From a phage: a stretch of 64,000 nucleotides of DNA. A program made the position numbers and the translations under genes. Shown piece after piece: positions 1,946 to 46,477 of this stretch; position 1 is the first letter of the stretch, and each line of letters opens with the position of its first letter. The notes under the pieces were generated by a model. That model did not search any database. It had not been told where the DNA came from and saw nothing but the letters and a program-made list of their open reading frames with translations. The stretch is taken from sequence record PZ386955.1; one strand, written 5' to 3'.

Positions 1946-4765
1946 ATGTATCCTATTCCTTTATTTATGTCAACAACATCAGCTTCAGTAGTAACAGCTA
2001 CATCTATAACCACTTCCTCTATTGGTATTGCAATAGTTGGTAGTAAAAAGCAACTGACATACACAGTTTCACCGGAAGATGGTGCGTTATTTGATATAGC
2101 TTTTTCATCTTCAGATAATACCAAAATGGTTATAGATAATAGTGGTATGATGGAGTTTGTTGCCGAAGGTGGTTTTGATGCAATAATGACAGCTAAAAAT
2201 AATTTAGGTGCTGTCTTAACTGATCAATCTGGTGGTTATGCTTCAGAATTAAGCGTGTACACTGAAAGTCTATCAGCTATGGATGTAGGCACTACTCAAC
2301 AGTTGGTTGCTACAATCAGTCCAGAAGGTGCTAAAGATCTTCCAGACATGGTAATTACGTACACCACAACAGATCCAGAAGTAGCTACTGTAAGCCCTAC
2401 AGGATTAATAACTGCTCTTAAAGATGGTAATTGCCGTATAGGTTGTACTGCAACGTATCAAGGAACAGTGGTGGCCTCTGATAGTTCTTATTTAGGTGTT
2501 AATGCTATTCCTGTCATTTCTAATGTAACAGCCGTGGCAAACAGCTATGGAGACGTTCGTGTTGCTTGGGATGTAGCTGATCCGCTAGATGGTGATACTT
2601 ATACTGTAGAAGTATTAGATTTAAGTAATAATAGTGTCCAGTGGACTACAACAACCACGAATACTTACGCTTACTTTGATATCTCTGACTCTATTCCTCT
2701 TTATGGGTTTGCTCCAACATACCTTAAAATTAGCGTTAAGAGCACCAAAGCAGCAGCCGTTATCTTTAATAACTCAATAGCTACAGATGATTCATTCATT
2801 AAAGAAGTTATTGTCTTTGCTGGACAAGATAACGTAAATGCACACTTTACAGAATTATCTGGTGCAAATAAAGCAGCAATGAGTAGCACAACAGTCCGTA
2901 ATGCATATGCTACGCAACGTGGTTTAGCAAATGCTGAAGTTCTTCCGTTAAATACAGCTTCTGGATCATCAGCAGCAGATAAATATGCTGACGATAAAGC
3001 TGGAACAGGTACACCAGACAACTACTGGTATGATCTGGATAACACAGCAGATGGGCCATGCTTAACTAACTTTATCACTAAAGTCACACCTTATGCAAGT
3101 AAGGTTAAAGCAATTGTTTGGGGACAAGGTGAAAATGATGCTGTATCAGCATCTTCAACTGTTGCAGGTAGGTACAGTAACACTACACGTTACCATGATG
3201 CTACGATAGCTATCTTTGATAAGATGCGTACAATAGTTCCTGCTTCTCAAGCAAAAATTGTTTGGCAGATCCTAGGACGTTCTTATTTATATGGTGTAGA
3301 AGTTAATGGTGTGGATTGGCAGAAGTACAGAAATGTACAAAGAACCATCTCTACAGCACGTGATGATGTTATCATTGGTTCTTGGGTAGATGGTGCTGAA
3401 CGTTACAGTGGCTATGTTTATGAAGAAGGTATTGATGGTCGTATCCATTATGTTTCTTCTGTATACCAAACAGCAGCTACAAAACTTGCTAAATCGGCAG
3501 CAGACGGTACAGACTTAACATCAACGTCACCTGTTTGGGTTGATATGGCTGTTCCAACTGGAGCAACAGCTACTTCCCAATCTAATCAAGATACAATTTT
3601 AGCATGGGATGCTCAAGGCTATAGTAAACACTACTTCCGTAATATTAACGTCTTAACAGCATCTGTATTAACGGAACAAACGCTTAATACGAACAGCTAT
3701 ACGTTTACCTATGCAGATCAAGTAGCACAATATGGTTTTGCAGCAGGAACTACTATATTTGATGTTGCATATTATGACGAAGCAAATGATGTGTTATCTC
3801 CTTTAGTACGTTTTAATGTTAACGTTACAGCAGGAACCGAAGAAGATAAACCTGTCGTGATGGACTATGATTTGACGCAAGAAACTCTCCCATCAGATGT
3901 TAAGGTTAATGGTGGGAACTCTTTTGCTCGTGCTTCTGGAGATAAACTTGTAGCCACTAACACCTTGGTTGCTCCGTTGGAGTATGTTGGTACTACCCCT
4001 GTAGGTAGACGTGTAACAGCTAACACAGCTACACAAATTTTTGTCAACAACGCCTTAACAAGTGCAAGCCCGTGGGTAAAGACCAACTTAACTGTTGCAG
4101 CTTCATCTGATAACTCTCCGGCTGGAACTACTGCTAATGTATTCAAATTAACTCCGACTACAACCTCTAGTAGTCATATCTTAACTGCGACATATACTAA
4201 CGCGTACAACATATCTGCCGGACGTAACTGGTCTGCCTCTGTTTTCTTGAAAGCGAATGGGATTACTAAGGCCAAACTAAGATTAAAAGCAGGAACTGAA
4301 GTTAATGAGGGTACTTTTGATTTAGCAGCAGGTACATTCACAGGAAGTGAAGCTAATATTATATCTATGGGCAACGGTTGGTATCGTGCTATTCTGCATA
4401 AAACAGGGATAGCCAAACAGTCCTCCATAAGTTTTGAAATAATTGCCTTGGATGCAACTGGTGCGGAGATTTTCGCTGGAGATGGTACTAGTAACCTTGC
4501 AGTTTGGTTGCCACAGCTTGAAGGTGCTTCTACAGGAGAAACATCAAAAGCTGGATCGCCTTATGTCTGCACATATCCTGGAAATTTAGGAGGAGTATCC
4601 TTCACTATACCAAGGAACGGACATACTGGTGTGGATGTTTACTATTCCAACGGAGACGTTGTTCGTGACGTATTCTCTGGTACGGCATCTACTTGGACAA
4701 TAAACTACTCCAGCTTGTATGATTGGGGATCAGTCTTTATTACAGGTTTGAAATATTACGACTAA
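1946..4765 (+). CDS. tail fibre / receptor-binding protein with Ig-like (Big_2-type) domain and possible SGNH/SASA-like esterase segment
   Basis: 939 aa; segment VGTTQQLVATISPEG...VATVSPTGLITALKDGNCRIGCTATYQG resembles Big_2; FAGQDNVNAHF and IVWGQGENDA resemble sialate-O-acetylesterase blocks (nucleophile position uncertain). Confidence 0.55.
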   Translation: MYPIPLFMSTTSASVVTATSITTSSIGIAIVGSKKQLTYTVSPEDGALFDIAFSSSDNTKMVIDNSGMMEFVAEGGFDAIMTAKNNLGAVLTDQSGGYASELSVYTESLSAMDVGTTQQLVATISPEGAKDLPDMVITYTTTDPEVATVSPTGLITALKDGNCRIGCTATYQGTVVASDSSYLGVNAIPVISNVTAVANSYGDVRVAWDVADPLDGDTYTVEVLDLSNNSVQWTTTTTNTYAYFDISDSIPLYGFAPTYLKISVKSTKAAAVIFNNSIATDDSFIKEVIVFAGQDNVNAHFTELSGANKAAMSSTTVRNAYATQRGLANAEVLPLNTASGSSAADKYADDKAGTGTPDNYWYDLDNTADGPCLTNFITKVTPYASKVKAIVWGQGENDAVSASSTVAGRYSNTTRYHDATIAIFDKMRTIVPASQAKIVWQILGRSYLYGVEVNGVDWQKYRNVQRTISTARDDVIIGSWVDGAERYSGYVYEEGIDGRIHYVSSVYQTAATKLAKSAADGTDLTSTSPVWVDMAVPTGATATSQSNQDTILAWDAQGYSKHYFRNINVLTASVLTEQTLNTNSYTFTYADQVAQYGFAAGTTIFDVAYYDEANDVLSPLVRFNVNVTAGTEEDKPVVMDYDLTQETLPSDVKVNGGNSFARASGDKLVATNTLVAPLEYVGTTPVGRRVTANTATQIFVNNALTSASPWVKTNLTVAASSDNSPAGTTANVFKLTPTTTSSSHILTATYTNAYNISAGRNWSASVFLKANGITKAKLRLKAGTEVNEGTFDLAAGTFTGSEANIISMGNGWYRAILHKTGIAKQSSISFEIIALDATGAEIFAGDGTSNLAVWLPQLEGASTGETSKAGSPYVCTYPGNLGGVSFTIPRNGHTGVDVYYSNGDVVRDVFSGTASTWTINYSSLYDWGSVFITGLKYYD

Positions 4766-4800: not shown

Positions 4801-5232
4801 TTAATCAGTGAAAATTACACTTACATCTTCTTTAGAAAAGAGTTTATGATCTTCACCTTTTGTCTCAAGAGTTTCATACAGGTTAAGAAGTTCTGAAACA
4901 TCTTTCTCTACCAGTTTCTTCAATGTTGCAATTTTCTGTTTGCGACTCTTAATACGTTCAGCTACAACCTTACGTTGGTATCCAGCAGTACGATAACCTG
5001 AGAAAGTTACACCAGTGAGACTTGCAGTTACAGGATCGTAATGACGTTCAATCTGAAATTTATTAAAAGGTACAGCGTCATCACGAATAATCTTCCCACC
5101 ATTACTTACTTGACGAAGACCAGTAACTTGTTCTAGTCGTGCCATAGAAATCTTTGGAGACAGACCAGAGTCCAGGTTCATACCATTGTTAATCAGTGCT
5201 TTCAGGGTGATTTTGCTGTTCAGTGTACTCAT
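4801..5232 (-). CDS. hypothetical protein
   Basis: 143-aa ORF; GGAGGA SD upstream of ATG at 5232; 3' overlap with methyltransferase gene. Confidence 0.5.
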   Translation of the reverse strand: MSTLNSKITLKALINNGMNLDSGLSPKISMARLEQVTGLRQVSNGGKIIRDDAVPFNKFQIERHYDPVTASLTGVTFSGYRTAGYQRKVVAERIKSRKQKIATLKKLVEKDVSELLNLYETLETKGEDHKLFSKEDVSVIFTD

Positions 5233-5920
5233 TTAGTCGTTCCTCCGCTTGCTTAAAAATATTTACATCGGCTTCACAGCCTAAGTATTCTCTACCTGTT
5301 AAAAGTGCCGCAACTTGTGTTGTTGCACTTCCAGAGAAGAAGTCTAAGACTACATCTCCTTCGTTGGTGTGTATATTAATAAGGTCACAAAACAAAGTCA
5401 AGTGTTTTTGTGTTGGATGAAAACGATCTGCTCCTTGATAGATAGGATACTCAAACACACCCTTATGGTAGGAAGCATTGAAGGTTGGCTTAGAACCTTT
5501 AACACAAACAATAGCCATTTCTTTAGCGTTACTAAGGTAGTTAACACCACTGTTGATGGGTACAGGGTTTGTTTTAATCCATTCAATAGTACGGAACATA
5601 CGAAAACCAAGCGGTTCAAGGATTTCACGTAGCTCCTGGATCTTCCACATATCATACCAAACTATGCAAGTACCACCTTTTCTAAGCACCCTGTAGGCTT
5701 CTTTGAATACTTCTTTAAAGTAAGGAATATCTACAACATCCCAATCACCAAAGTTGTAAGATACACGGAATCTATCCGTATCTTTTCCAGTAGGCTCTCC
5801 AGACTGAAAATTTGTGTCACGAGAAATAGCATATGGTGGGTCAGTAAGAATCAAATCTACACTATTGCTTTCGAGGGTTTGCAGGTAGTTTAATGCAGTG
5901 TTGTTTACAAATTCGCTCAT
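5189..5920 (-). CDS. DNA N6-adenine (amino) methyltransferase, beta-class
   Basis: N-terminal DPPY motif (LILTDPPYAI) preceding FxGSGxT-type AdoMet motif (LDFFSGSATT); GAAGGAG SD. Confidence 0.85.
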   Translation of the reverse strand: MSEFVNNTALNYLQTLESNSVDLILTDPPYAISRDTNFQSGEPTGKDTDRFRVSYNFGDWDVVDIPYFKEVFKEAYRVLRKGGTCIVWYDMWKIQELREILEPLGFRMFRTIEWIKTNPVPINSGVNYLSNAKEMAIVCVKGSKPTFNASYHKGVFEYPIYQGADRFHPTQKHLTLFCDLINIHTNEGDVVLDFFSGSATTQVAALLTGREYLGCEADVNIFKQAEERLNEYTEQQNHPESTD

Positions 5921-5936
5921 TATATCTCCTTCAAAG

Positions 5937-5962
5937 AAAAGGAGCCGTTAGGCTCCTTATAT
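5937..5962 (-). terminator. rho-independent terminator
   Basis: Hairpin AAGGAGCC(TAAC)GGCTCCTT followed by TTTTCTTT on minus strand. Confidence 0.65.
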
Positions 5963-5980
5963 TCACACAATATTTAACTA

Positions 5981-6928
5981 TTAGAAACAGTGCAGGAAGT
6001 TTCGACCATACTGCAAACCAATAGGAGCAAATGGGATATCATCATCGAAATCTTGAACAACAGGTTCTGGTTCTTTCGGTGCTGGCTCTTTCTTCTCTAC
6101 TTTTTTAGTTTCTTTCTTAACTTCTTGTACTGGGGTAGACATTCCACGGATAGCAGCAGCTACTTTATCAGACAAAGCAAGAACTTCACGAGCAGCTTCA
6201 ATAATCTCTTCTGCCGTTACAGTTTTACCTGTATGATCACGACAAGCGTTAAGAATTGCGTGTCCAACTGAAGCACCAAGATCATAGTCAGTCACATCAA
6301 CGCCACGATCTTTAGCAATTTCAGCTTTCAGAGTAACAGTTGCAGATTGTACCACACCAGCCAAGTCGAAAGCATCACCTTTCACACCAGCACGTAGAAG
6401 CTCCAGAGCGCCGTTTACAGCGTGTCCTGTTTCAATCCCTACGGTATCACGTTTTTTGTAGTTAGGCTTGCTACCTTCGTTATTAGATGGCTTATTTCCA
6501 CCTTTTGAAGAAGATTGCGCTTGCTGAACACCTTCTGTTGAAAGAACAGTGATTTTACCTTTAGAGGAGTTGTAGTATGTTTTGCCATTCCATTCGGAAG
6601 GTTTAACATCCATAGTTAGTTCTACACCTTTTTCGATAGTAACCCACTTGTCACCATCTTTAACTTGCAGGTTTTCATGTTCTGGATGCAGTTTAACTTC
6701 ACCTAGGCTAACCCAAACACCTTTATCATCAGCACCAGCACCTTTCTCTTTAATAAGCAGAGATGCTTTGTGAGTTGATTCAATTTTCTTATCTGGCTGA
6801 CCTGCAACCTTAATATAAGAGACTTTCATTTCATCAAACTTATCCAGTTTGACATATTCAACGATACCTTCAGCCCAGAATGCTTCTTTTTTAGTACGAC
6901 GGTCGATTTCAGAATTAATTACTGGCAT
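5981..6928 (-). CDS. putative ssDNA-binding / replication accessory protein with SSB-like acidic DDDIPF motif
   Basis: 315 aa; Lys/Glu-rich linker then DFDDDIPF near C-terminus (SSB-tail hallmark, but 15 aa from the end). Confidence 0.35.
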   Translation of the reverse strand: MPVINSEIDRRTKKEAFWAEGIVEYVKLDKFDEMKVSYIKVAGQPDKKIESTHKASLLIKEKGAGADDKGVWVSLGEVKLHPEHENLQVKDGDKWVTIEKGVELTMDVKPSEWNGKTYYNSSKGKITVLSTEGVQQAQSSSKGGNKPSNNEGSKPNYKKRDTVGIETGHAVNGALELLRAGVKGDAFDLAGVVQSATVTLKAEIAKDRGVDVTDYDLGASVGHAILNACRDHTGKTVTAEEIIEAAREVLALSDKVAAAIRGMSTPVQEVKKETKKVEKKEPAPKEPEPVVQDFDDDIPFAPIGLQYGRNFLHCF

Positions 6929-6944
6929 AAATTCTCCTCTATAA

Positions 6945-7343
6945 TTACATTACTTTAACACAAAACTCTCGTAAAAGAGTAGCGTCAGTTTCTTCCAACA
7001 GGTATTTACCAAGACCAATACCAAATCCTATTTCACCACTTTCGAAATGGAGGATTTGTATCTTTTCTCCACCAAGGTTAATTACTTTTGCTTTTCCAGG
7101 ATTATCCAAAACATCTCGTATTGTATCCTGTAGTAGCATTAGTTCACGTTTTGTGATAGTGGTTTCAGATATCTCTTTGTTTTCTACTCTCACTGTTAAA
7201 CGATTGTATCCACCAAAGAGACATAGTATTTGAATAAAAAAGGTATTATCTTGAGGTTCAACATCTTTTTTAGTTAGCTCAAGACGATTAGTTTCTCTAC
7301 TATAGAACGTCTCGACTAAGATTTTAGAACGATTATCTGTCAT
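6945..7343 (-). CDS. hypothetical protein
   Basis: 132-aa ORF in co-directional gene block. Confidence 0.5.
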   Translation of the reverse strand: MTDNRSKILVETFYSRETNRLELTKKDVEPQDNTFFIQILCLFGGYNRLTVRVENKEISETTITKRELMLLQDTIRDVLDNPGKAKVINLGGEKIQILHFESGEIGFGIGLGKYLLEETDATLLREFCVKVM

Positions 7344-28178: not shown

Positions 28179-29339
28179 TTAGTAAGAACGACCACCAAAC
28201 ACATACTCTGTGTAGTTTTTACGTTCTTTGTTTTTAATAACAACTTCAATGTTGTTGCCTTTATCATCGGTGAACACAAAGTGATAACCGTCACCACCCA
28301 TTGTACGGATGTGTTTTTCATCATACGTCAGCAAGATACGGTCTACACCCCAGTAGTAGTCACCTTCTTCATCTTTATCTTCTACGGTAACGACTCCTTC
28401 CATTTCAGGAAGATGCTCTTCTCCTAGCTTATGGTCTACAGCTACAACATAACGATTACCGCTAAACAAACCCTGTGCTGTCATACCGTCAATATCGGTA
28501 TCTGCCGAAACATCTCCTGTACGGTCTACACCGTTGACTTTCAGAAGTTTAACTTCTTTTGCAGCATAGCGGTGTTCAGTAATACTGATACCCATTAATG
28601 CAAGTGCATCAGAGAATTTGTCATTAGGGTAACGGTTAAGTTCTTCTACTAAGGACTGAACAATATCAAAGTTCAAATCCACGGAAAGATTATAAAGCGT
28701 TTCAAAATCTGGTAAAAAGGCTTTGTTCTCCAGATTTTTAGCCAGATAGTCATCCATAGTAGCTTTAGGTAGTTTCTTATAGCTAAAGCTGTAGAAAATA
28801 CGGCTAGGACGATTACGCAAAAATTCTGATACATAACCATCATTTTTAGTCAATACAAACAGCTTGTCATAGCCACCAACACCATCCAGCAGGGTAAGCA
28901 AACCATCCTGTGCATCTTTTTCAGCATACAGTTTATCAAATTCATCGATCATAATCATCACAGGTTGTGTGATTTTAGACATAAAATTGATAAAGCCTTC
29001 ACCATTAAAAGCACTACCGATAGAAATAGTAGGAATACCCATTTCACGAAGAGCAGAAGACAGCATTTTAGCTTGCAAAGTTTTACCGCTACCCTTCGTA
29101 CCCTCAAGGAGAACACCTGTGTTTTTACCTTTGCGGCTAAGGAACGTCTTGATAATACGTTCTGATTTATCATCAGTATCACCGTATGTTACTGAAGGGA
29201 CTTCCATATCGTTTTTAGGATACAGGAAGAACTCACCACTTTGAGTAACACCTACACCAAAAGTTCCTGCTGGAATTTCTTCGATATCTGTACCAGACTT
29301 CTGACGCAGGAAGATTTGATTGCCGAATACTGTAAACAT
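28179..29339 (-). CDS. AAA+ ATPase, paralogue A
   Basis: Walker A GTKGSGKT, Walker B IMIDEFDK, LLTLLDG; N-terminal 250 aa paralogous to 43581-45191. Confidence 0.6.
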   Translation of the reverse strand: MFTVFGNQIFLRQKSGTDIEEIPAGTFGVGVTQSGEFFLYPKNDMEVPSVTYGDTDDKSERIIKTFLSRKGKNTGVLLEGTKGSGKTLQAKMLSSALREMGIPTISIGSAFNGEGFINFMSKITQPVMIMIDEFDKLYAEKDAQDGLLTLLDGVGGYDKLFVLTKNDGYVSEFLRNRPSRIFYSFSYKKLPKATMDDYLAKNLENKAFLPDFETLYNLSVDLNFDIVQSLVEELNRYPNDKFSDALALMGISITEHRYAAKEVKLLKVNGVDRTGDVSADTDIDGMTAQGLFSGNRYVVAVDHKLGEEHLPEMEGVVTVEDKDEEGDYYWGVDRILLTYDEKHIRTMGGDGYHFVFTDDKGNNIEVVIKNKERKNYTEYVFGGRSY

Positions 29340-29359: not shown

Positions 29360-29830
29360 TTAGTCAGATTCCCAAATGTTGTCTTTCTTAATCCACATTC
29401 GTTGATTATCTGAACCTCTATAACGTTTCGTTGTTGGTTGATTCATATCATACTTACCATCTATCACTATGTCAACCAGTTTTTTAATTTTTTCTGGAAT
29501 TTCCTCAAAAAGATATCCTGTATATAAGACAATATCTTTTTTGTTTCCAAAACAATCTCTTACCTTCTCAAGAACATACTCTACAGTGTCAATGTTCTCT
29601 TTGTCAAGAGGTTCACCACCTAAAACTGTTAATCCTTTAATGAAAGGTCGAGATAAATCTTTCAAGATAAGACCTAATGTTTCAGTAGTGAACTCTTGTC
29701 CGTAGTTATACGACCAGGCTTTCTGGTTAAAGCAGCCACGGCAACCGTGGCTACAACCGCTCACCCACAAAGAGCATCTTACACCGTCACCGTTGAGCAT
29801 GTCAACAGGTTCATATCCGGCGTAATTCAA
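29360..29830 (-). CDS. nrdG: anaerobic ribonucleotide reductase activating protein (radical SAM)
   Basis: CSHGCRGC cluster near N-terminus; 156 aa; immediately downstream of nrdD. Confidence 0.85.
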   Translation of the reverse strand: MNYAGYEPVDMLNGDGVRCSLWVSGCSHGCRGCFNQKAWSYNYGQEFTTETLGLILKDLSRPFIKGLTVLGGEPLDKENIDTVEYVLEKVRDCFGNKKDIVLYTGYLFEEIPEKIKKLVDIVIDGKYDMNQPTTKRYRGSDNQRMWIKKDNIWESD

Positions 29831-31626
29831 AAATGTTTCTCCCTTTCTAGTACCTCTTGCATTTTACCTTTATTATAAGGGCGAGAGTTAGGGGCAGACA
29901 GGTATCCTGACACTCTTCTGATTACAGATATAGATTCTTCCTCATGATTGCCACAACTTGGACACTCGAAGCCTTTAGCTGTTGCCTTAAATTCACCATG
30001 AAAACCACATTTGAAACACTGATCTACAGGTTGGTTCACGCCAAAATAAGGAATTTTGTTGTAGGCATAATCTACAAGGGTTTCCAGTGCTTGCAAGTTA
30101 TTTTTAAGGTTTGGTGTTTCTACATAACCTATGTTCCCACCATTACTGATTTGTGCAAAACCTTCCTCATAATCCCACTTTTGGAACGGGGTAGTGTGCA
30201 TCCATACAGGTTGATGGAAAGAGTTTGTCAAGTAGTCACGATCAATAGAACCAGGATAGCGATCATTTAATGCTTTGGCAAATTTATAGCACAAGGATTC
30301 TGCTGGTGTTCCATACAAACTAAAAGCTAAACCAGAACGTTCTTTAAATGTGCCACAGATATCCTTCATATATTGAAGGATGTTTTTACCCATTGCTTTT
30401 GGATTGGTGTTACCTGGGTATAAAATCTCCATAGCTTCTGCTAAACCTACATAACCGATACTAATAGAGGCATAACCACCTTCGAATAGTTTACCAATCT
30501 CTTCATTAGCTTCTAGTCGAGCTAAAGCCCCTTCCATAAACAATGTAGGGTTTTGAGATGCTTTGGTATGTCTAATACGGTTAACACGTAGCATATGTGC
30601 CTTATACGCCATCTCCATATGTTGTTCCAACAGTTCAGTAAATAAGATGCCCTTTTCACGGGACTCTGCTGCAATGATAGGTAAGTTTAAAGAAACTACG
30701 CCTAAGTTGAAACGACCATCATATTTTTCACCCTGCTCTGTTGCATAGTATGACAAGAAGCTACGGCAACCCATGCTTGTGACGCGACCATCTGAAGATC
30801 CTGTAACTTCTTTGTTTAAAGGTACAGAGATAAAATCAGGATAAATGCGTTCAGCACAACACTCCATTGCCAGTTGCTTCAAATCATAATTTGGATCGCC
30901 AGCTTTCATGTTAACACCATCTTCCAAGAAGAAGATAACTTTAGGAAACACAGGAGTTACCCTATCTTTTCCCAACCCTTGTTTGTGCACCATTAGGTAG
31001 TTTTTAGTGATCATTCTACCAAAAGCAGAGGTATCCAAACCTAAACTAATTGTTATAAAAGGTGACTGACCATTTACACTCATTAGAGTGTTCACCTGGT
31101 AGATTAAAGTTTGCATTGCATCATAGACCTGTTTATCTACCATACGCATAGCAATATCATAATCGCCAACATCGGCATATATTTTATTAAAACTTGCTTT
31201 AACGTATTGACTAAGCCCAGTATCAACATGTGCACAAGTTTGTCCACCATATTGGCTAGAAGCTACTGCTTGAATAATTTGAGTTAGGACAGTAGTCGCT
31301 ACACCGATAGATTTTGGTTTTTCAATATGTGCATTACCAATACGGAAACCGTTCTCAAGCATATCTTGGTAATTTACCAGGCAACAATTAGTTAAAGGTG
31401 AGAGTAAATAATCTAAATCGTGAATGTGACCATACCCACTTTTATGCCATTCTGCCAGATCTTCCGGTAAAATATGGGTCATTGCCATGTGCTTGCTTAG
31501 GATACCTGCTAGTAAGTCTCGGTGAGTATTAACAATCATTGCAGGTTTGTTTGCATTTTCACGAGTAAATTCTTCGGATGTTTGTTCGAGGAATCCGATT
31601 ACATCCTCATATAGTTTTTGGGTCAT
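29827..31626 (-). CDS. nrdD: anaerobic ribonucleoside-triphosphate reductase
   Basis: C-terminal glycyl-radical motif RRVSGYL and CxxC...CxxC zinc site; start reassigned to ATG 31626 (GGAGGA SD). Confidence 0.9.
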   Translation of the reverse strand: MTQKLYEDVIGFLEQTSEEFTRENANKPAMIVNTHRDLLAGILSKHMAMTHILPEDLAEWHKSGYGHIHDLDYLLSPLTNCCLVNYQDMLENGFRIGNAHIEKPKSIGVATTVLTQIIQAVASSQYGGQTCAHVDTGLSQYVKASFNKIYADVGDYDIAMRMVDKQVYDAMQTLIYQVNTLMSVNGQSPFITISLGLDTSAFGRMITKNYLMVHKQGLGKDRVTPVFPKVIFFLEDGVNMKAGDPNYDLKQLAMECCAERIYPDFISVPLNKEVTGSSDGRVTSMGCRSFLSYYATEQGEKYDGRFNLGVVSLNLPIIAAESREKGILFTELLEQHMEMAYKAHMLRVNRIRHTKASQNPTLFMEGALARLEANEEIGKLFEGGYASISIGYVGLAEAMEILYPGNTNPKAMGKNILQYMKDICGTFKERSGLAFSLYGTPAESLCYKFAKALNDRYPGSIDRDYLTNSFHQPVWMHTTPFQKWDYEEGFAQISNGGNIGYVETPNLKNNLQALETLVDYAYNKIPYFGVNQPVDQCFKCGFHGEFKATAKGFECPSCGNHEEESISVIRRVSGYLSAPNSRPYNKGKMQEVLEREKHF

Positions 31627-31642
31627 TAATCCTCCGTGGAAA

Positions 31643-31670
31643 ATAAAAGCCAGCATTAAGCTGGCTTTAG
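31643..31670 (-). terminator. rho-independent terminator / attenuator upstream of nrdD
   Basis: Hairpin AAAGCCAGC(ATTA)GCTGGCTTT. Confidence 0.5.
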
Positions 31671-41281: not shown

Positions 41282-41461
41282 TTATTTTTGTAGATCATTT
41301 CTTCTTTCCTTTTTGATTACAGCCCCATCACTCCCTTGCCAAACTTCCGATCTGAATTCCATCTCAAACCACTCACCACCGCAAAAACGGTTATGTTCAA
41401 CACGTCTATCTTCCTTCATTGCTTCTTTAGCTTCGATAGAAGTTAGTTCGATGTTTTGCAT
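41282..41461 (-). CDS. hypothetical protein (first gene of leftward block)
   Basis: Start reassigned to ATG 41461 with GGAGAAAAACAAA SD. Confidence 0.35.
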   Translation of the reverse strand: MQNIELTSIEAKEAMKEDRRVEHNRFCGGEWFEMEFRSEVWQGSDGAVIKKERRNDLQK

Positions 41462-41579
41462 TTGTTTTTCTCCTTTCATTTGGTATGCGCTAATCTTAAC
41501 AAAATAAAAATGTATGTCAATACTTGATTTGAAATTAGTTTCTGGTACTCTGTGGGTATCGTAACAAAAGAGGTTAGAT

Positions 41580-41870
41580 ATGAACATCACACTAGCAACT
41601 AAGAATATTACAGAAACTTTTGATGGTTTTGGCATTATTATTGCTGTTCATGGGCATAACGAAAAATGGTTAGCCTCTTTTGAAGAGGACAAAGAACGCA
41701 ATGTACGTTTGAATGCACCAATCAAAGTTTTACACCAGGTAGGTGAGAATAAGAAACAATGGAGATCATACAAAGAGTGGAACATTACGAACGAGTTAAT
41801 ACACAAACTTGACAAAGTGATAAACATGTTCGACAATGCACCAAGCAGTGCAAAACGTGTTTTACTATAA
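41580..41870 (+). CDS. hypothetical protein
   Basis: AAAGAGG SD. Confidence 0.45.
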   Translation: MNITLATKNITETFDGFGIIIAVHGHNEKWLASFEEDKERNVRLNAPIKVLHQVGENKKQWRSYKEWNITNELIHKLDKVINMFDNAPSSAKRVLL

Positions 41871-42672: not shown

Positions 42673-42923
42673 TGTTAAGTATCAAACCTAAAATGATAAC
42701 AGAAGACGAAGCAGACTTTATTTTCAAATGTGGACGTGTATGGAGAGAATTCACAAAAGGAAATGAAGTGGTGGTTGTTGTTGAACACAAGATATCTATC
42801 CAGGATCTGTTTGGACAATATATTGATGTTATTAAATTAGGTATTGACAAGGGTTTAGTTGAGGTGTTAACATTAGATCAAGTTGAAGCAGAGCACCTCG
42901 ATAAAGTGGTGGTTGAATTTTAA
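42672..42923 (+). CDS. hypothetical protein
   Basis: GGGAG SD; start overlaps upstream stop. Confidence 0.45.
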   Translation: MLSIKPKMITEDEADFIFKCGRVWREFTKGNEVVVVVEHKISIQDLFGQYIDVIKLGIDKGLVEVLTLDQVEAEHLDKVVVEF

Positions 42924-42943
42924 AATACAGACGGGAGAAAGGT

Positions 42944-43117
42944 ATGAGTTTCTTTGTTACAGTATTTATGGCTATCTGGATTGTAGTCTCACTCGTTCTT
43001 TTCCTGGTGGGTTGTCTGGAAGAGATTAAGAAAGCGGTTATTTGCGGTTTCTTTGGCTTTATTATCTCTCCTGCCTGGATGTGGTTCTTCATTATGATTG
43101 GTTTCCTTAAAAGGTAA
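42944..43117 (+). CDS. small membrane protein
   Basis: 57 aa, two hydrophobic segments, GGGAGAAAGG SD; below ORF-track size cut-off. Confidence 0.35.
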   Translation: MSFFVTVFMAIWIVVSLVLFLVGCLEEIKKAVICGFFGFIISPAWMWFFIMIGFLKR

Positions 43118-43131
43118 GTGAGGAATAAAGA

Positions 43132-43569
43132 ATGAGTAAAACAAACGTAATCGCAGATAAAGCAACGGATGTACTTCTGAACATGGTTAACGTCACTATT
43201 CAAACAATGAGTGATGTTGTAGAGTTTGGAAAACAACAAATTCCAGAAGTAATCCATCAATTATTAGTGTGGAAAGCAGTATCCGCAGGTTTATGGCAAC
43301 TTTTTAGTATTTGCTTTATGTTTATTACTTTTATTGCTGTGCGGAACCTCGTAAAAGCAATTAAAGATAAAGAATGCCTGTGGTCACGAGATCGCTATGG
43401 TGAAGTATCTGCTTTACCTATTGTTGGTCTTGTTGTCTGTGCTTTCTTTTTCTTTTTAGGATTTGTTATTTTCTTTTCGAATTTTGATTGGCTAAAAATC
43501 ATTATTGCACCAAAAGTGTATCTGATTGAATTTGCTGCTGATTTAATTCGTTCATCTCAACAAAAATAA
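43132..43569 (+). CDS. membrane protein
   Basis: 145 aa, multiple hydrophobic segments. Confidence 0.45.
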   Translation: MSKTNVIADKATDVLLNMVNVTIQTMSDVVEFGKQQIPEVIHQLLVWKAVSAGLWQLFSICFMFITFIAVRNLVKAIKDKECLWSRDRYGEVSALPIVGLVVCAFFFFLGFVIFFSNFDWLKIIIAPKVYLIEFAADLIRSSQQK

Positions 43570-43580
43570 AAGGGGTTAAA

Positions 43581-45191
43581 ATGAAATACACGATTTATGG
43601 TGATATTGTAAGTGTAAATAAAGATATGGGCGTGGAATCTAACTATCTTCCACCTGGATTCTATACTGTTAGTCGTGATCCCCTTGGCAATTATTTTTTA
43701 AGCCGTGGTAATCTAACAGGTGTACCGGATGTTCTGTATGGTGAAACAGAAAAACGAGCAAATCACGTTATCCGTACATTCCATCGCCGGAGTGCACAAG
43801 GTAAAAATACAGGCTTGCTTCTGACAGGAACTAAGGGTAGTGGTAAAACTATGTTAGCCAAACTCATTAGTCGTGATCTTGTAGAAGAAGGTATTCCAAC
43901 TATTATGGTTACTCAAGCCTACAGTGATGCTAATTTCATTGAACTTATTAGCAAGATCACCGACAAAGCAGTGATTATTTTTGACGAGTTTGATAAAGTA
44001 TATGAGAAGAAACAAGATCAAGAAGCACTTCTCACTTTGTTAGATGGTACTGGCAGTGGTAATAAACTGTTTATTCTAACTAAAAACAGTGGCTTTATCT
44101 CTGAATTCTTTCTAAATCGTCCTAGTCGTGTGTTTTATAATTTTAATTATGATAAAATCTCACTAGAAACTATGATTGACTATTTAGATAAAAACCTGGA
44201 TAACAAAGCACACTTTGATAATTTCCAAAGACTTTGGGATGTAAGTTTAGAGTTGTCCTTTGATGTGATCCAAGGTATAGTAGAAGAACTTAATTTCTAC
44301 CCTGATTTATCCTTTAAAGAATGCATCTCTATGATGGGCGTTTCTTTGGGTGGTGGTAATAAATGGGATACTACAAGTATTAACAATTTTAAACGTGGTA
44401 GCGGTTGTCCACAATGTAAGAGGGAGAGACAAACAATGTCCGACGATCAACATATTGCAGATTTCTTTTCTACAGGGGAATTTAAGGAAGGCACTATCTT
44501 CACCAATACAGGGAAACGTAACAAGCGTGATGCAGTATGGATGGTTGAGTGTCCTGTTTGCTCCCATGATGAATATGTTCAAGCAGGTGTTTGTGATGGT
44601 AAATTTTACTCTGCAGGACATAACCTTAAACAAGGGTATATTCCGTGTCGTTGTGGGAACTATCAGTATACAGAAGACCAGATCACCTATAGGGTAAAAA
44701 AGGAAGTAGAAGGGAAAGGGTATGTCTGGGTAGATTGGATTACCAAACCCTCTTCTATAGGTAAGTTTAAATATCTTTGTCTTGTGCATGGTGAGCAGAT
44801 AGGGAGTGCTCGTAATTTATTAAGCCTCGGTCAAGGTTGTCCACAGTGTGCTGGTCATAATCAACAGCAATTATATATTAATATTGTTAAAGATAATGAT
44901 ATTATAGTTGCTCTTAAGTTTGGTATATCTAAAGATAGCGATAGACGATTAAACGGTCAAAATAGCCGTAATCTGTTTTTTATGGAGCGTATTTGTTTAT
45001 ATGATTTTAGCACAGTGAAACAATGTAGGGCTGCTGAAAGAGCTATAAAGAAAAAATTAAAAACTGGTATTTTAACGGCAAGAGAGTTGAAAGATGGTTA
45101 TACAGAAACAGTAAGTGTTTCTGATTTGGAAAATCTTCAAAAAATTATTACACAATATGGTGGCAAATTAGTATACAGTAAGGAGATGTAA
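43581..45191 (+). CDS. AAA+ ATPase fused to zinc-ribbon repeats and a C-terminal GIY-YIG/T5orf172-like domain, paralogue B
   Basis: Walker A GTKGSGKT, Walker B IIFDEFDK, LLTLLDG; then GCPQC, CPVCSHDE, CRCG, GCPQCAGH; C-terminus IVALKFGISKDSDRRL. Confidence 0.6.
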   Translation: MKYTIYGDIVSVNKDMGVESNYLPPGFYTVSRDPLGNYFLSRGNLTGVPDVLYGETEKRANHVIRTFHRRSAQGKNTGLLLTGTKGSGKTMLAKLISRDLVEEGIPTIMVTQAYSDANFIELISKITDKAVIIFDEFDKVYEKKQDQEALLTLLDGTGSGNKLFILTKNSGFISEFFLNRPSRVFYNFNYDKISLETMIDYLDKNLDNKAHFDNFQRLWDVSLELSFDVIQGIVEELNFYPDLSFKECISMMGVSLGGGNKWDTTSINNFKRGSGCPQCKRERQTMSDDQHIADFFSTGEFKEGTIFTNTGKRNKRDAVWMVECPVCSHDEYVQAGVCDGKFYSAGHNLKQGYIPCRCGNYQYTEDQITYRVKKEVEGKGYVWVDWITKPSSIGKFKYLCLVHGEQIGSARNLLSLGQGCPQCAGHNQQQLYINIVKDNDIIVALKFGISKDSDRRLNGQNSRNLFFMERICLYDFSTVKQCRAAERAIKKKLKTGILTARELKDGYTETVSVSDLENLQKIITQYGGKLVYSKEM

Positions 45192-45743
45192 ATGCGGATT
45201 ACTGATAAGTATGTGTTCTTCTTCTCGGCAAAAGATGAATTTAGCAACTGGTATCTATCATCTTTTATTGAACCTTTAGCTCCCAAGTATAATAATTCTA
45301 TTACAAGTTCTGTTGAATTTACTTGTGTGGAACAATATATGATGTGGAGAAAAGCATGTTTGTTTTATGATTACAACATTGCATCTTCTATTTTAACCGG
45401 AGATCTAAGATATACAGGAGAAAAAGAACAGGCATATTATAAGCGACTAGGCAGATTAGTTAAAGATTATGATGAAGATACCTGGGCTTCTTTACGGGAG
45501 AAGATTGTCAAGCGTGGTTTGTATCTTAAATACACACAAAATGAAGATCTCAAAAATAAACTTATAGCTTACGCAGATAAGGAGTTTGTAGAGGCAAGTC
45601 CTTATGATTCTATTTATGGTATCAAAATGGGGATGTGGGATCGGGACGTGGAAAATAAGGATTGTTGGAAAGGACAAAATCTTTTAGGAAAATGGCATAC
45701 AGACCTTGCTGTTTATCTAAAATCACAATCTGATATTTCCTGA
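45192..45743 (+). CDS. NADAR-family protein (YbiA-like ADP-ribose N-glycosidase fold)
   Basis: Blocks FFFSAKDEFSNW, FTCVEQYMMWRKACLFYD, EASPYDSIYGIKMG match E. coli YbiA/NADAR blocks; start overlaps stop of upstream ATPase gene. Confidence 0.8.
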   Translation: MRITDKYVFFFSAKDEFSNWYLSSFIEPLAPKYNNSITSSVEFTCVEQYMMWRKACLFYDYNIASSILTGDLRYTGEKEQAYYKRLGRLVKDYDEDTWASLREKIVKRGLYLKYTQNEDLKNKLIAYADKEFVEASPYDSIYGIKMGMWDRDVENKDCWKGQNLLGKWHTDLAVYLKSQSDIS

Positions 45744-45960
45744 TATTTTGAAAATTTTTACTTTTATAAAAAGGGGTGTGGGTTTCATGTACGGAAATCC
45801 ACCCTCTGAATAATATATCCAGAGTAAATATTATTCTGTACTCTGTTAATAAAGTATTTAATTTGTTTGTTGGACTATGGTATCTGATCTTTAAAAGGCA
45901 TACTATCTCTTAACTACTATTTATAACAGAACAGTAAAATCATTTTTATAAAAAGGACAA

Positions 45961-46160
45961 AATTATTTAAAGTTTTTACAGATTTTTGGATACAAATTTT
46001 GAAAATGAAAAGTTCAAGTTTGGTCAAAATTATTTAAAGTTTTTGTACGTATTTCTATCCAGATTTTGAAAATGAAAACTTCAATTTTTTAAAAATTCCC
46101 CAGTTTATTTAAAGTTTTTTTGCCTTTTTCCGTAGAAAAATCAAAAATGAAAAGTTCAAT
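45961..46160. repeat. three tandem ~65-75-bp direct repeats
   Basis: Each unit has ATTATTTAAAGTTTTT then TTTGAAAATGAAAAGTTCAA (internal TTGAA/TTCAA inverted repeat). Confidence 0.7.
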
Positions 46161-46183
46161 TTCGTGTTTTTATAGGTGTGTGT

Positions 46184-46198
46184 ATGATAATCATTCTC
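46184..46198. promoter_or_regulatory. Fur-box-like palindrome within palindromic cluster
   Basis: ATGATAATCATTCTC vs Fur consensus ATGATAATCATTATC; followed by TCATTCTCAGTAAGAGAATGA and GAGAATTTTTCTC palindromes to 46250. Confidence 0.4.
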
Positions 46199-46477
46199 AG
46201 TAAGAGAATGAGAATCGTTAGCAAATGAGAATTTTTCTCATTTAGAGAATAACGCGCAGGGGTGGTGTTTGTCTCGCGCTCCCGTGTCCCCTCGCCATAC
46301 AATAAGAATAGCATAACCAACAACAAAAGCAAGCGATTATTTCTATCTTTACATTTCTTTACAAATTTATTTTAGACGAGCTACCGGCGATCAACCTTCC
46401 AACCAGTAGTGCCCTGGTATGTTAGCCCCGCCTTTACGCCGTGGGGGTGGCGCTTCCTCTTCTGTATGTAAAACAGT

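Follow-up and report, generated by a model that had tools for sequence, protein, structure and literature searches.

The closest described counterpart of the downstream gene at the locus studied here is AdfN^Bas60, a NADAR protein carried by the BASEL phages Bas60, Bas61 and Bas62 (Johannesman, Carlson & LeRoux, Nat Commun 2025; PMC11825919 / PMC11257639). It is reported to neutralise DarT1 and to rescue three DarTG1-sensitive phages, and DarTG2 is described there as not countered (PMC11257639; PMC11825919). The protein was assayed via ectopic expression, and NADAR alone is reported as sufficient against DarTG1 (PMC11257639). DarG1/BC4488 antitoxins and the P. nicotianae enzyme PnNADAR (Schuller et al., Mol Cell 2023; PDB 8bau) belong to the same superfamily as the gene studied here, with the same active-site constellation and guanine-ADPr hydrolysis chemistry. 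For the upstream neighbour, the nearest described genes are the T5orf172 homing-endonuclease genes (HEGs) with CapR/DUF723/DUF4379 modules (Barth et al., NAR Genom Bioinform 2023; PMC10448857), where the CapR zinc-finger motif is given as CxxC...CxC and where a repeat-mediated in-frame deletion is reported for ICP1 gp174*.

The window, a 64,000-nucleotide stretch of phage DNA (PZ386955.1), is from a myovirus of E. coli of the Justusliebigvirus type. Two adjoining ORFs, which a sequence-only reading had correctly delimited, were subjected to profile search and alignment, and the upstream one also to structural comparison (Table 1). By alignment with relatives, the apparent AAA+/CapR/T5orf172 fusion encoded upstream is a strain-specific chimera and not an evolved, recurring architecture. 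We consider it very probable that the two ORFs are unrelated neighbours, an AdfN^Bas60-type NADAR gene and a strain-specific deletion chimera that is probably neutral or mildly defective and not a partner of the NADAR.

Table 1. Features of the locus and of the ATPase paralog, with positions in the window.
Feature	Position	Strand	Basis
Chimeric ORF, 536 aa: ATPase residues 1-263 and homing-endonuclease residues 118-390, joined in frame	43581..45191	+	split BLAST, junction, PHROG
ATPase-derived part: N-terminal beta-domain, complete AAA+ alpha/beta core, helical lid	43581..44352	+	99% identity to P0018
Walker A, GTKGSGKT, residues 83-90	43827..43850	+	sequence
Walker B, VIIFDE, residues 131-136	43971..43988	+	sequence
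Recombination junction, one copy of the 18-bp direct repeat GTGGTAATAAATGGGATA	44353..44370	+	relatives' alignment
Endonuclease-derived DNA-binding region: half zinc finger, then CapR-type modules	44371..44867	+	Pfam CapR, model
T5orf172 / GIY-YIG-fold nuclease domain	44868..45188	+	invariant Y, R, E
Shine-Dalgarno AAGGAG for NADAR, inside the 3' end of the upstream ORF	45180..45185	+	sequence
NADAR gene, 183 aa, AdfN^Bas60 ortholog	45192..45743	+	Pfam, PHROG, phmmer, Bas60 identity
Second, intact ATPase paralog, 386-aa ORF, beside nrdG/nrdD	28179..29339	-	tblastn, ORF list, PHROG

In relatives, a 375-aa ATPase gene is followed by a terminator, a separate endonuclease gene of 325-477 aa and the NADAR gene, and these three genes are syntenic across Justusliebigvirus and Phapecoctavirus. 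In annotated relatives a 74-bp spacer separates the 375-aa ATPase from a 390-aa endonuclease, and the terminator (positions 4825-4846 of relative L001) lies within the stretch deleted in the window. The gene adjoining the NADAR is a free-standing T5orf172 homing-endonuclease gene, with the ATPase gene upstream of the terminator. ATPase and endonuclease were also separate genes on the contigs that carry an identical NADAR. One of the relatives, L003, has lost the AAA+ core by an independent deletion and has a frameshifted endonuclease, and its NADAR is intact and identical to that of the window. The ATPase copy (phrog_2376) was accordingly judged dispensable and the NADAR retained, on the basis of two independent natural deletions. 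ESCO5 has two extra ORFs between endonuclease and NADAR, and in a Klebsiella relative the ATPase is present, with neither endonuclease nor NADAR in the 1.2 kb downstream to the record end. No NADAR was found within 6-12 kb of the ATPase homologs of LAh_6, SE131, an Erwinia jumbo phage, Deep Blue and EFDG1. No tRNA and no Rfam family were detected in or around the locus.

The window holds one copy of the 18-bp repeat. Relatives have two, the first within the ATPase gene and the second within the endonuclease gene, at a distance of 764 bp and with matching codon phase. Split BLAST alignment of the chimeric ORF to PHB05 and Bas62 gave an 18-bp overlap and a 764-bp gap, and the junction is in frame at base level. 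The chance expectation for an 18-mer common to two genes of such size is about 2-7e-5. Using PHROG, the chimera was divided into phrog_2376 (ATPase, residues 1-302) and phrog_681 (endonuclease, residues 258-535), and in the AlphaFold model of P0018, the 99%-identical ATPase of a relative, the junction position corresponds to the linker between lid and C-terminal domain. An ancestral origin of the repeat in the ATPase family was considered and rejected, as it is absent from the ATPase genes of ESCO5 and Klebsiella; the endonuclease copy is absent in Bas60.

The contiguous junction was absent from 62 related phage records, and the exact 536-aa protein was not found by exact look-up among about 15 billion proteins. 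In the homolog search the fusion was covered to 59% at most by any match, and no match paired AAA with CapR/DUF723. Exact pattern search of IMG/VR did not recover the junction, a negative that carries little weight because the parental-junction control was equally without match and the bare 18-mer occurred in two relatives only, one undeleted (L021) and one a fragment (L022). The junction was also not found in a scan of JGI metagenomes, which was run without a control. The sequence-only reading had described a T5orf172-like fusion; its C-terminal segment does fit the GIY-YIG fold, and the fusion itself was not confirmed, the two genes being separate in every relative examined.

We propose that recombination between the two identical, in-phase direct repeats removed 764 bp. 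The ATPase thereby lost its C-terminal beta-domain together with the intrinsic terminator, and the endonuclease its ribosome-binding site and residues 1-117, equal to about 1.5 CapR zinc fingers. The CapR repeats of this endonuclease are a known hotspot of recombination. With the terminator between them gone, the NADAR would now share a transcript with the upstream operon. Most likely the chimera is a by-product, neutral or mildly defective, in a region that the phage can do without.

The sequence-only reading had proposed profile-HMM searches and a fold comparison as checks, and both were run, the fold comparison on the ATPase and nuclease parts, with the NADAR, AAA and CapR profiles all above their cutoffs. 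The Walker A and B motifs that it had noted are present (Table 1), and the match to Pfam AAA (PF00004) reached 37.8 bits against a cutoff of 21.2. The AlphaFold model of P0018 (pLDDT 90.2) is divided into domains at residues 1-43, 56-190, 195-252 and 262-363, and its best fold matches in Foldseek were Bcs1, proteasomal Rpt, NSF and YjoB (E about 1e-8 to 1e-9). The Walker motifs, the Pfam AAA match and the predicted core-plus-lid fold place the ATPase part in the classic clade of AAA+ ATPases (Bcs1, Rpt, NSF, B. subtilis YjoB); phrog_2376 is set apart from these by an N-terminal beta-domain specific to phages and by a C-terminal beta-domain that relatives have. The latter (112 aa in relatives) is missing from the chimera, where endonuclease sequence stands instead. 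As the phrog_2376 alignment extends to residue 302, a zinc finger of the ATPase family's own was considered, and was rejected on the Cys-poor beta-domain at the C-terminus of relatives. Hda, IstB and RuvB identities (NCBIfam) were also rejected; all scored far below their cutoffs and were therefore taken as generic P-loop similarity. In PADLOC the ATPase gave a marginal match (mad8, E=8.5e-4), and the chimera and the endonuclease gave none. The paralog elsewhere in the window has about 42% identity to the ATPase and matches phrog_2376 (E=6.7e-104) over profile positions 4-359 of 363.

CapR (PF21817) was matched by the endonuclease part with E=1.4e-18 and 67.3 bits (cutoff 24.2), best over residues 301-359. 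Four CxxC pairs had been claimed for the upstream protein; the actual count is three CxxC (276, 324, 420) and one CxC (356), arranged as CPQC 276, whose CxC partner is lost, CPVC 324 / CRC 356, and CPQC 420. The first zinc finger is broken at the junction, and in the model of the fragment pLDDT is below 50 over the first 26 residues. The T5orf172 profile (cutoff 20 bits) gave a sub-threshold 18.9 bits with the whole chimera and 20.7 bits with the fragment alone; 23 of 27 homologs matched it at E<=0.01. Homologs share invariant Y, R and E positions in the nuclease domain (LYINIV...KFGIS...R...AAERAI), in agreement with the GIY-YIG fold. Endonuclease length among relatives ranges over 325-477 aa (329/355/390/477-aa variants), with varying repeat number. 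The parental gene can thus be assigned to the T5orf172/GIY-YIG homing-endonuclease class with CapR repeats, its mobility being putative; the differing repeat numbers and the lack of the gene in the 1.2 kb that follow the ATPase in the Klebsiella record are indirect signs of homing. The chimera's C-terminal 273 residues resemble the HEGs described in PMC10448857, and its deletion resembles that reported there for ICP1 gp174*, in the same kind of gene; the recombination partner in the window was the neighbouring ATPase gene, giving an inter-genic chimera instead of the intragenic repeat loss described in that paper.

At the boundary between the two ORFs the NADAR start had been read as overlapping the upstream stop. 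The sequence is ATG(M536)-TAA-ATG, so that no nucleotide separates stop from start, and a canonical AAGGAG is placed 6 nt upstream. The same arrangement was found at the endonuclease/NADAR junction in PHB05, Bas62 and Bas60, and by this comparison the abutting codons in the window are inherited from the relatives' endonuclease-NADAR boundary. Translational coupling by re-initiation at TAA-ATG is possible.

The NADAR assignment itself held. The ORF matched PF08719 with E=2.5e-36 and 125.8 bits (cutoff 35.1), covering positions 9-154 of 163, as well as phrog_1017 (E=4.5e-50) and the PADLOC candidate-defence NADAR model PDC-M42C. It was aligned to P. nicotianae NADAR 8bau with phmmer (E=2.7e-13; ~30% identity over the aligned region), and residues were mapped to the PnNADAR ADPr-contacting list of PMC11543638. 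All ADP-ribose-contacting and catalytic positions in that list were matched, with E95 standing for D and Y142 for W; the key residues are E47, K54, K84, R88, Y93, E95, W98, R102, E134, D139 and Y142. The catalytic Glu and the phosphate-binding Lys are E47 and K54, equivalent to E43/K50 of PnNADAR and E88/K95 of E. coli C7. Compared with bas60_0111 of Bas60, 180 of 183 residues are identical (98.4%), and none of the three substitutions (N62S, A99T, S178T) falls at a key position. Both genes are of the same genus, of 183 aa and in the same genomic position, directly after T5orf172 endonuclease sequence, and differ in that the upstream gene of the window is a deletion chimera and that of the Bas60 type an intact endonuclease. 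By alignment, enzyme class and orthology identify the ORF as the Justusliebigvirus copy of AdfN^Bas60. The counter-defence role against DarT proposed by the sequence-only reading is already published for this 98.4%-identical ortholog (PMC11257639; PMC11825919), and we infer by analogy that this exact allele would counter DarT1. As a stand-alone ADP-ribosylglycohydrolase it would take off the ADP-ribose with which the host toxin DarT1 marks guanines in phage DNA, and the phage could then replicate in E. coli that carries DarTG1. NADAR identity and an anti-DarT guanine de-ADP-ribosylation role, both published for this phage lineage, are therefore supported. Membership in the DarG1/BC4488 antitoxin class was rejected, since the ORF has Glu (E134) where the antitoxins have Asp at the discriminating last-strand position and has the chimera as its upstream neighbour. 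No ART domain was found in the six flanking ORFs scanned, and the ORF is not adjacent to a DarT toxin.

Glu at position 134 is the YbiA-family state of the subfamily-discriminating residue as given in PMC11125620, and the ORF exceeds the cutoff of TIGR02464, 'riboflavin biosynthesis intermediates N-glycosidase' (110.5 bits vs 73.7, NCBIfam), so that it carries both sequence marks of the YbiA subfamily; database labels are 'YbiA-like N-glycosidase' or 'GTP cyclohydrolase II'. The gene could then be an auxiliary metabolic gene, mainly encoding a YbiA-type N-glycosidase that detoxifies riboflavin-pathway intermediates and not an anti-DarT enzyme. We regard this as very unlikely, because the Bas60 protein is reported to act on DarT1 and to rescue DarTG1-sensitive phages, and is placed in the published tree outside the YbiA-like clade, among non-YbiA, non-DarT-associated bacterial NADARs (PMC11257639). 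Furthermore, guanine-ADP-ribose was hydrolysed in vitro by every NADAR subtype assayed in PMC11125620, and riboflavin genes were not found among the flanking ORFs scanned. The upstream neighbour of the NADAR might be its dedicated partner, as the sequence-only reading had suggested in describing a translationally coupled two-gene module for counter-defence or DNA repair. The zero spacer between the ORFs and the three-gene synteny in two genera would fit such a module, and on synteny a loose functional association of ATPase, endonuclease and NADAR is possible. However, the fusion was found in this one sequence only, relatives have a terminator and a selfish endonuclease gene between ATPase and NADAR, L003 keeps its NADAR without the ATPase core, and distant ATPase homologs have no NADAR nearby. 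In addition, ectopically expressed NADAR is reported as enough against DarTG1 by itself (PMC11257639), and the predicted ATPase fold is of the classic protein-remodelling AAA kind and not of a DNA-repair type (Foldseek). A dedicated module is thus highly improbable.

The chimera could also be an artefact of sequencing or assembly in which 764 bp were dropped in silico from a real three-gene phage, given that the junction is unique to this sequence and its breakpoints lie exactly on the repeat. Collapse during assembly is unlikely, since reads and the usual assembly k-mers are far longer than 18 bp. In-frame repeat-mediated deletions are moreover documented for this endonuclease family (PMC10448857), and the locus has other natural indels (the endonuclease length variants and the L003 deletion), so that we consider an artefact improbable. 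If the deletion is real it might be adaptive, with loss of the terminator and the endonuclease start raising NADAR expression, and/or with a new function of the chimera. The terminator does lie within the deleted stretch; the reading frame is kept, the join falls exactly on a domain linker, and both the AAA+ module and the invariant nuclease residues survive. Against this stand its occurrence in one sequence only and a broken first zinc finger that is predicted to be disordered. Besides, one third of random repeat-mediated deletions would be expected to stay in frame, and in the present case the repeats owe their matching phase to a common coding motif. An adaptive origin therefore has only a slim chance of being correct. 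Since the AAA+ module is intact, the nuclease domain apparently so, and the in-frame deletion at a domain boundary, a functional chimera is possible. Little probability is attached to a non-neutral deletion that would have placed adfN under read-through from the upstream operon and tethered a functional AAA+ motor to a sequence-specific CapR/GIY-YIG DNA-targeting module, and as little to a related reading in which the endonuclease gene next to adfN normally serves as a homing driver that carries it between co-infecting phages. A chance by-product of recombination beside an AdfN^Bas60-type gene is the reading we prefer.

The dissolution of an apparently exotic fusion partner on alignment with close relatives is a caution for genome scans, and neither a novel architecture nor a counter-defence system of two genes should be recorded on the strength of this chimera. 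To the phage factors against DarTG1, a class already characterised, the window adds just another NADAR allele. The locus illustrates how CapR zinc-finger repeats in T5orf172 genes can drive recombination with a neighbouring gene. Across the genus the anti-defence gene lies directly against a homing-endonuclease gene, which could aid its horizontal spread.

The NADAR region of the window was 96-99% identical to Justusliebigvirus phages of the Stephanstirmvirinae (among them JohannJBalmer/Bas62, PHB05 and phi92). The 3.5-kb query aligned as three pieces over ~4.3 kb in these genomes, and the locus was studied more closely because of this mismatch in length. In PHB05, Bas62 and Bas60, a 375-aa ATPase gene is followed by a 74-bp spacer, an endonuclease gene (390 aa in PHB05 and Bas62, 467 aa in Bas60) and the NADAR gene, which begins directly after the endonuclease stop codon. 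Window positions 42900-44370 aligned to 3001-4471 of the PHB05 locus, and 44353-46400 to 5218-7317. Both alignments overlap by 18 bp, GTGGTAATAAATGGGATA, found twice in relatives (4454-4471 and 5218-5235 in L001, the locus of an undeleted relative) and once in the window (44353-44370). Each copy is read in the same phase, as G-N-K-W-D; loss of the 764 bp between them, missing in the window, therefore fused the first 263 residues of the ATPase in frame to residues 118-390 of the endonuclease. The 536-aa "fusion" of the sequence-only reading is a chimera made by this deletion. A PHROG scan divided it likewise: the ATPase family phrog_2376 covered its residues 1-302, ending at profile position 304/363, and the endonuclease family phrog_681 covered residues 258-535, from profile position 276. 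The deletion removed the C-terminal 112 residues of the ATPase, a terminator-like hairpin (L001 4825-4846; 9-bp stem, UUCG loop, T-tail), and the ribosome-binding site and first 117 residues of the endonuclease.

Features of the window at and around the NADAR locus
Feature	Position	Strand	Size	Remark
Chimeric ORF	43581-45191	+	536 aa
NADAR ORF	45192-45743	+	183 aa
Shine-Dalgarno AAGGAG ahead of NADAR	45180-45185	+		sequence read
ORF directly upstream of chimera	43132-43569		145 aa	phrog_3054
AT-rich tandem repeat	45958-46160		~67 bp	2 copies at 45958-46088 (TRF); degenerate third reaching ~46160
Strand switch, divergent intergenic region	~41300-41580
ATPase paralog, intact	28179-29339	-	386 aa	phrog_2376; ~42% identical to truncated copy
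nrdG	29360-29830
nrdD	29827-31656

Both ORFs proposed from the sequence alone were present on the plus strand, and the stop and start codons between them, described as overlapping, abut instead (ATG TAA ATG). The Walker motifs previously noted in the chimera were read as GTKGSGKT (residues 83-90) and VIIFDE (residues 131-136), with a Pfam AAA score of 37.8 bits. The CapR zinc-finger domain scored 67.3 bits; T5orf172 scored 18.9 bits on the whole chimera, below the cutoff of 20, and 20.7 bits on the isolated window fragment. The cysteine pairs, counted earlier as four CxxC, are three CxxC and one CxC. The first zinc finger is left without its CxC half and is predicted to be disordered in the model.

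T5orf172 is a GIY-YIG subfamily whose homing-endonuclease genes carry repeated CapR/DUF723/DUF4379 CxxC...CxC zinc-finger DNA-binding modules, and the nucleotide-level repeats in these genes are described as favouring recombination and in-frame deletions (Barth et al. 2023, PMC10448857). The parental endonuclease is, as judged by sequence, a member of this family. CapR was matched in 27/27 of its homologs and T5orf172 in 23/27, with invariant Tyr, Arg and Glu columns; lengths of 325, 329, 355, 390, 467 and 477 aa among relatives are consistent with repeat gain and loss.

The AlphaFold model (pLDDT 90.2) of P0018, a relative's full-length ATPase with 99% identity, comprised four parts: beta-domains at the N-terminus (1-43) and the C-terminus (262-363), and between them an AAA+ alpha/beta core (56-190) and a helical lid (195-252). 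Foldseek matched it to Bcs1, proteasomal Rpt subunits, NSF and YjoB (E ~1e-8 to 1e-9), and on this predicted structure the parental ATPase groups with classic-clade protein-remodelling AAA ATPases. The junction (residues 258-263) falls in the linker following the lid, so the chimera would retain a complete AAA+ module and lack only the C-terminal domain. The window's intact paralog adjoins the anaerobic ribonucleotide reductase genes nrdG and nrdD. Homologs of phrog_2376 in Enterococcus phage EFDG1, an Erwinia jumbo phage, SE131 and LAh_6 lie repeatedly in or beside phage tRNA gene clusters, and two distant homologs lie near a ~500-aa protein annotated 'RNA-binding protein'; these neighbourhoods may hint at the function of the ATPase family.

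By chance, an in-phase 18-mer shared by two ~1.1-kb genes is expected at only ~2-7e-5. Neither ESCO5 nor the Klebsiella phage has the 18-mer in its ATPase gene, and Bas60 lacks the endonuclease copy. This 18-bp match of the ATPase gene to a CapR repeat in the adjacent endonuclease gene goes far beyond chance and is confined to some Justusliebigvirus genomes, pointing to a past micro-conversion between these genes as a possible origin.

The chimera was found only in the window sequence. The contiguous junction was present in 0/62 phage records matching a 300-bp junction-spanning probe, and the exact chimera was not found among ~15 billion proteins, a collection holding the window NADAR protein in a cluster of 108 members. 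In 5.8 billion clusters, no match covered more than 59% of the chimera; homologs were AAA (~375 aa) or CapR/DUF723 (325-477 aa) proteins, never both. Public contigs with an identical NADAR carried separate ATPase and endonuclease genes, and an exact-pattern scan of JGI metagenomes did not find the junction. The same negative in IMG/VR is weak because the parental-junction control was also absent there; only two relatives were present, one clearly undeleted.

The evidence speaks against the ATPase being a partner of NADAR, and their linkage is not conserved. In relatives, a terminator-like hairpin and a selfish endonuclease gene separate them, with two more small ORFs between endonuclease and NADAR in Phapecoctavirus ESCO5, and a Klebsiella subfamily member with the ATPase had neither endonuclease nor NADAR in the 1.2 kb downstream, to the record's end. 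A 139-kb contig (L003; ENA ERZ27299273 k141_42669) carries an independent natural rearrangement at 2180-4000, in which the whole AAA+ core is gone and the 145-aa membrane-protein gene upstream runs out of frame into what remains of the ATPase C-terminus. The T5orf172 endonuclease of this contig carries a frameshift; its NADAR is intact and identical to the window copy. No NADAR lay within 6-12 kb of ATPase homologs in Aeromonas LAh_6, Salmonella SE131, the Erwinia jumbo phage, Bacillus Deep Blue and Enterococcus EFDG1. These layouts, together with the window's intact paralog, argue against the proposed two-gene module: the adjoining ORFs are real, but reading them as a fusion protein and its partner in such a module was wrong.

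The NADAR assignment stood (Pfam PF08719, 125.8 bits, cutoff 35.1, E=2.5e-36; phrog_1017, E=4.5e-50). The protein differs from AdfN^Bas60, the Bas60 NADAR, at 3/183 positions (N62S, A99T, S178T), from that of Bas62 at 3 and from that of PHB05 at 1. Aligned with the P. nicotianae NADAR structure 8bau (E=2.7e-13), the protein matched the ADP-ribose and catalytic positions given in Schuller et al. 2023 (PMC11543638), whose loss would have counted against the assignment (window=P. nicotianae: E47=E43, K54=K50, K84=K75, R88=R79, Y93=Y84, E95=D86, W98=W89, R102=R93, E134=E125, D139=D130, Y142=W133). These comparisons establish, at the level of sequence, its class, an intact active site and orthology to AdfN^Bas60; the window allele is presumably active. 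A NADAR gene with ~98.6% identity to that of this E. coli phage group also occurs in four records labelled 'Campylobacter phage', host C. jejuni (MG065639, MG065645, MG065656, MG065689), probably mislabelled or contaminant genomes.

A metabolic role, as a YbiA-type N-glycosidase of riboflavin intermediates, is a formal alternative: the discriminating last-strand residue is Glu, the YbiA-family state, and the cutoff of NCBIfam TIGR02464, a model for N-glycosidases of such intermediates, is exceeded, which accounts for database annotation as "YbiA-like N-glycosidase" or "GTP cyclohydrolase II". However, all NADAR subtypes tested in PMC11125620 hydrolysed guanine-ADPr in vitro, and direct experiments on the ortholog favour an anti-DarTG1 role. 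Johannesman, Carlson and LeRoux (PMC11257639, published as PMC11825919) describe a NADAR common to Bas60, Bas61 and Bas62; expressed ectopically, it let three DarTG1-sensitive phages replicate several logs better and neutralised DarT1 toxicity without phage, and it did not counter DarTG2. The counter-defence reading of NADAR was correct, yet already published for Justusliebigvirus.

Around the locus, genes left of the strand switch lie on the minus strand and a small-ORF block leading to the ATPase-NADAR cluster on the plus strand, with promoter-like sites on both strands and a GC skew sign change near 42 kb. The membrane-protein-like phrog_3054 ORF, weakly matching the 'membrane protein' moron family phrog_1486, is kept across Justusliebigvirus and truncated in L003. 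The tandem repeat, in a 1.4-kb non-coding stretch downstream of NADAR, had no tRNA or Rfam match and is annotated 'repeat_region' in one relative.

An adaptive or neo-functional chimera, or spread of adfN driven by the homing endonuclease, is very improbable. The chimera would rather be a neutral or mildly defective by-product of the deletion. With the terminator deleted, NADAR may be co-transcribed with the upstream operon starting near 41580, and, going by the published activity of the Bas60 ortholog, it would remove guanine-ADP-ribose and guard the phage against DarTG1.
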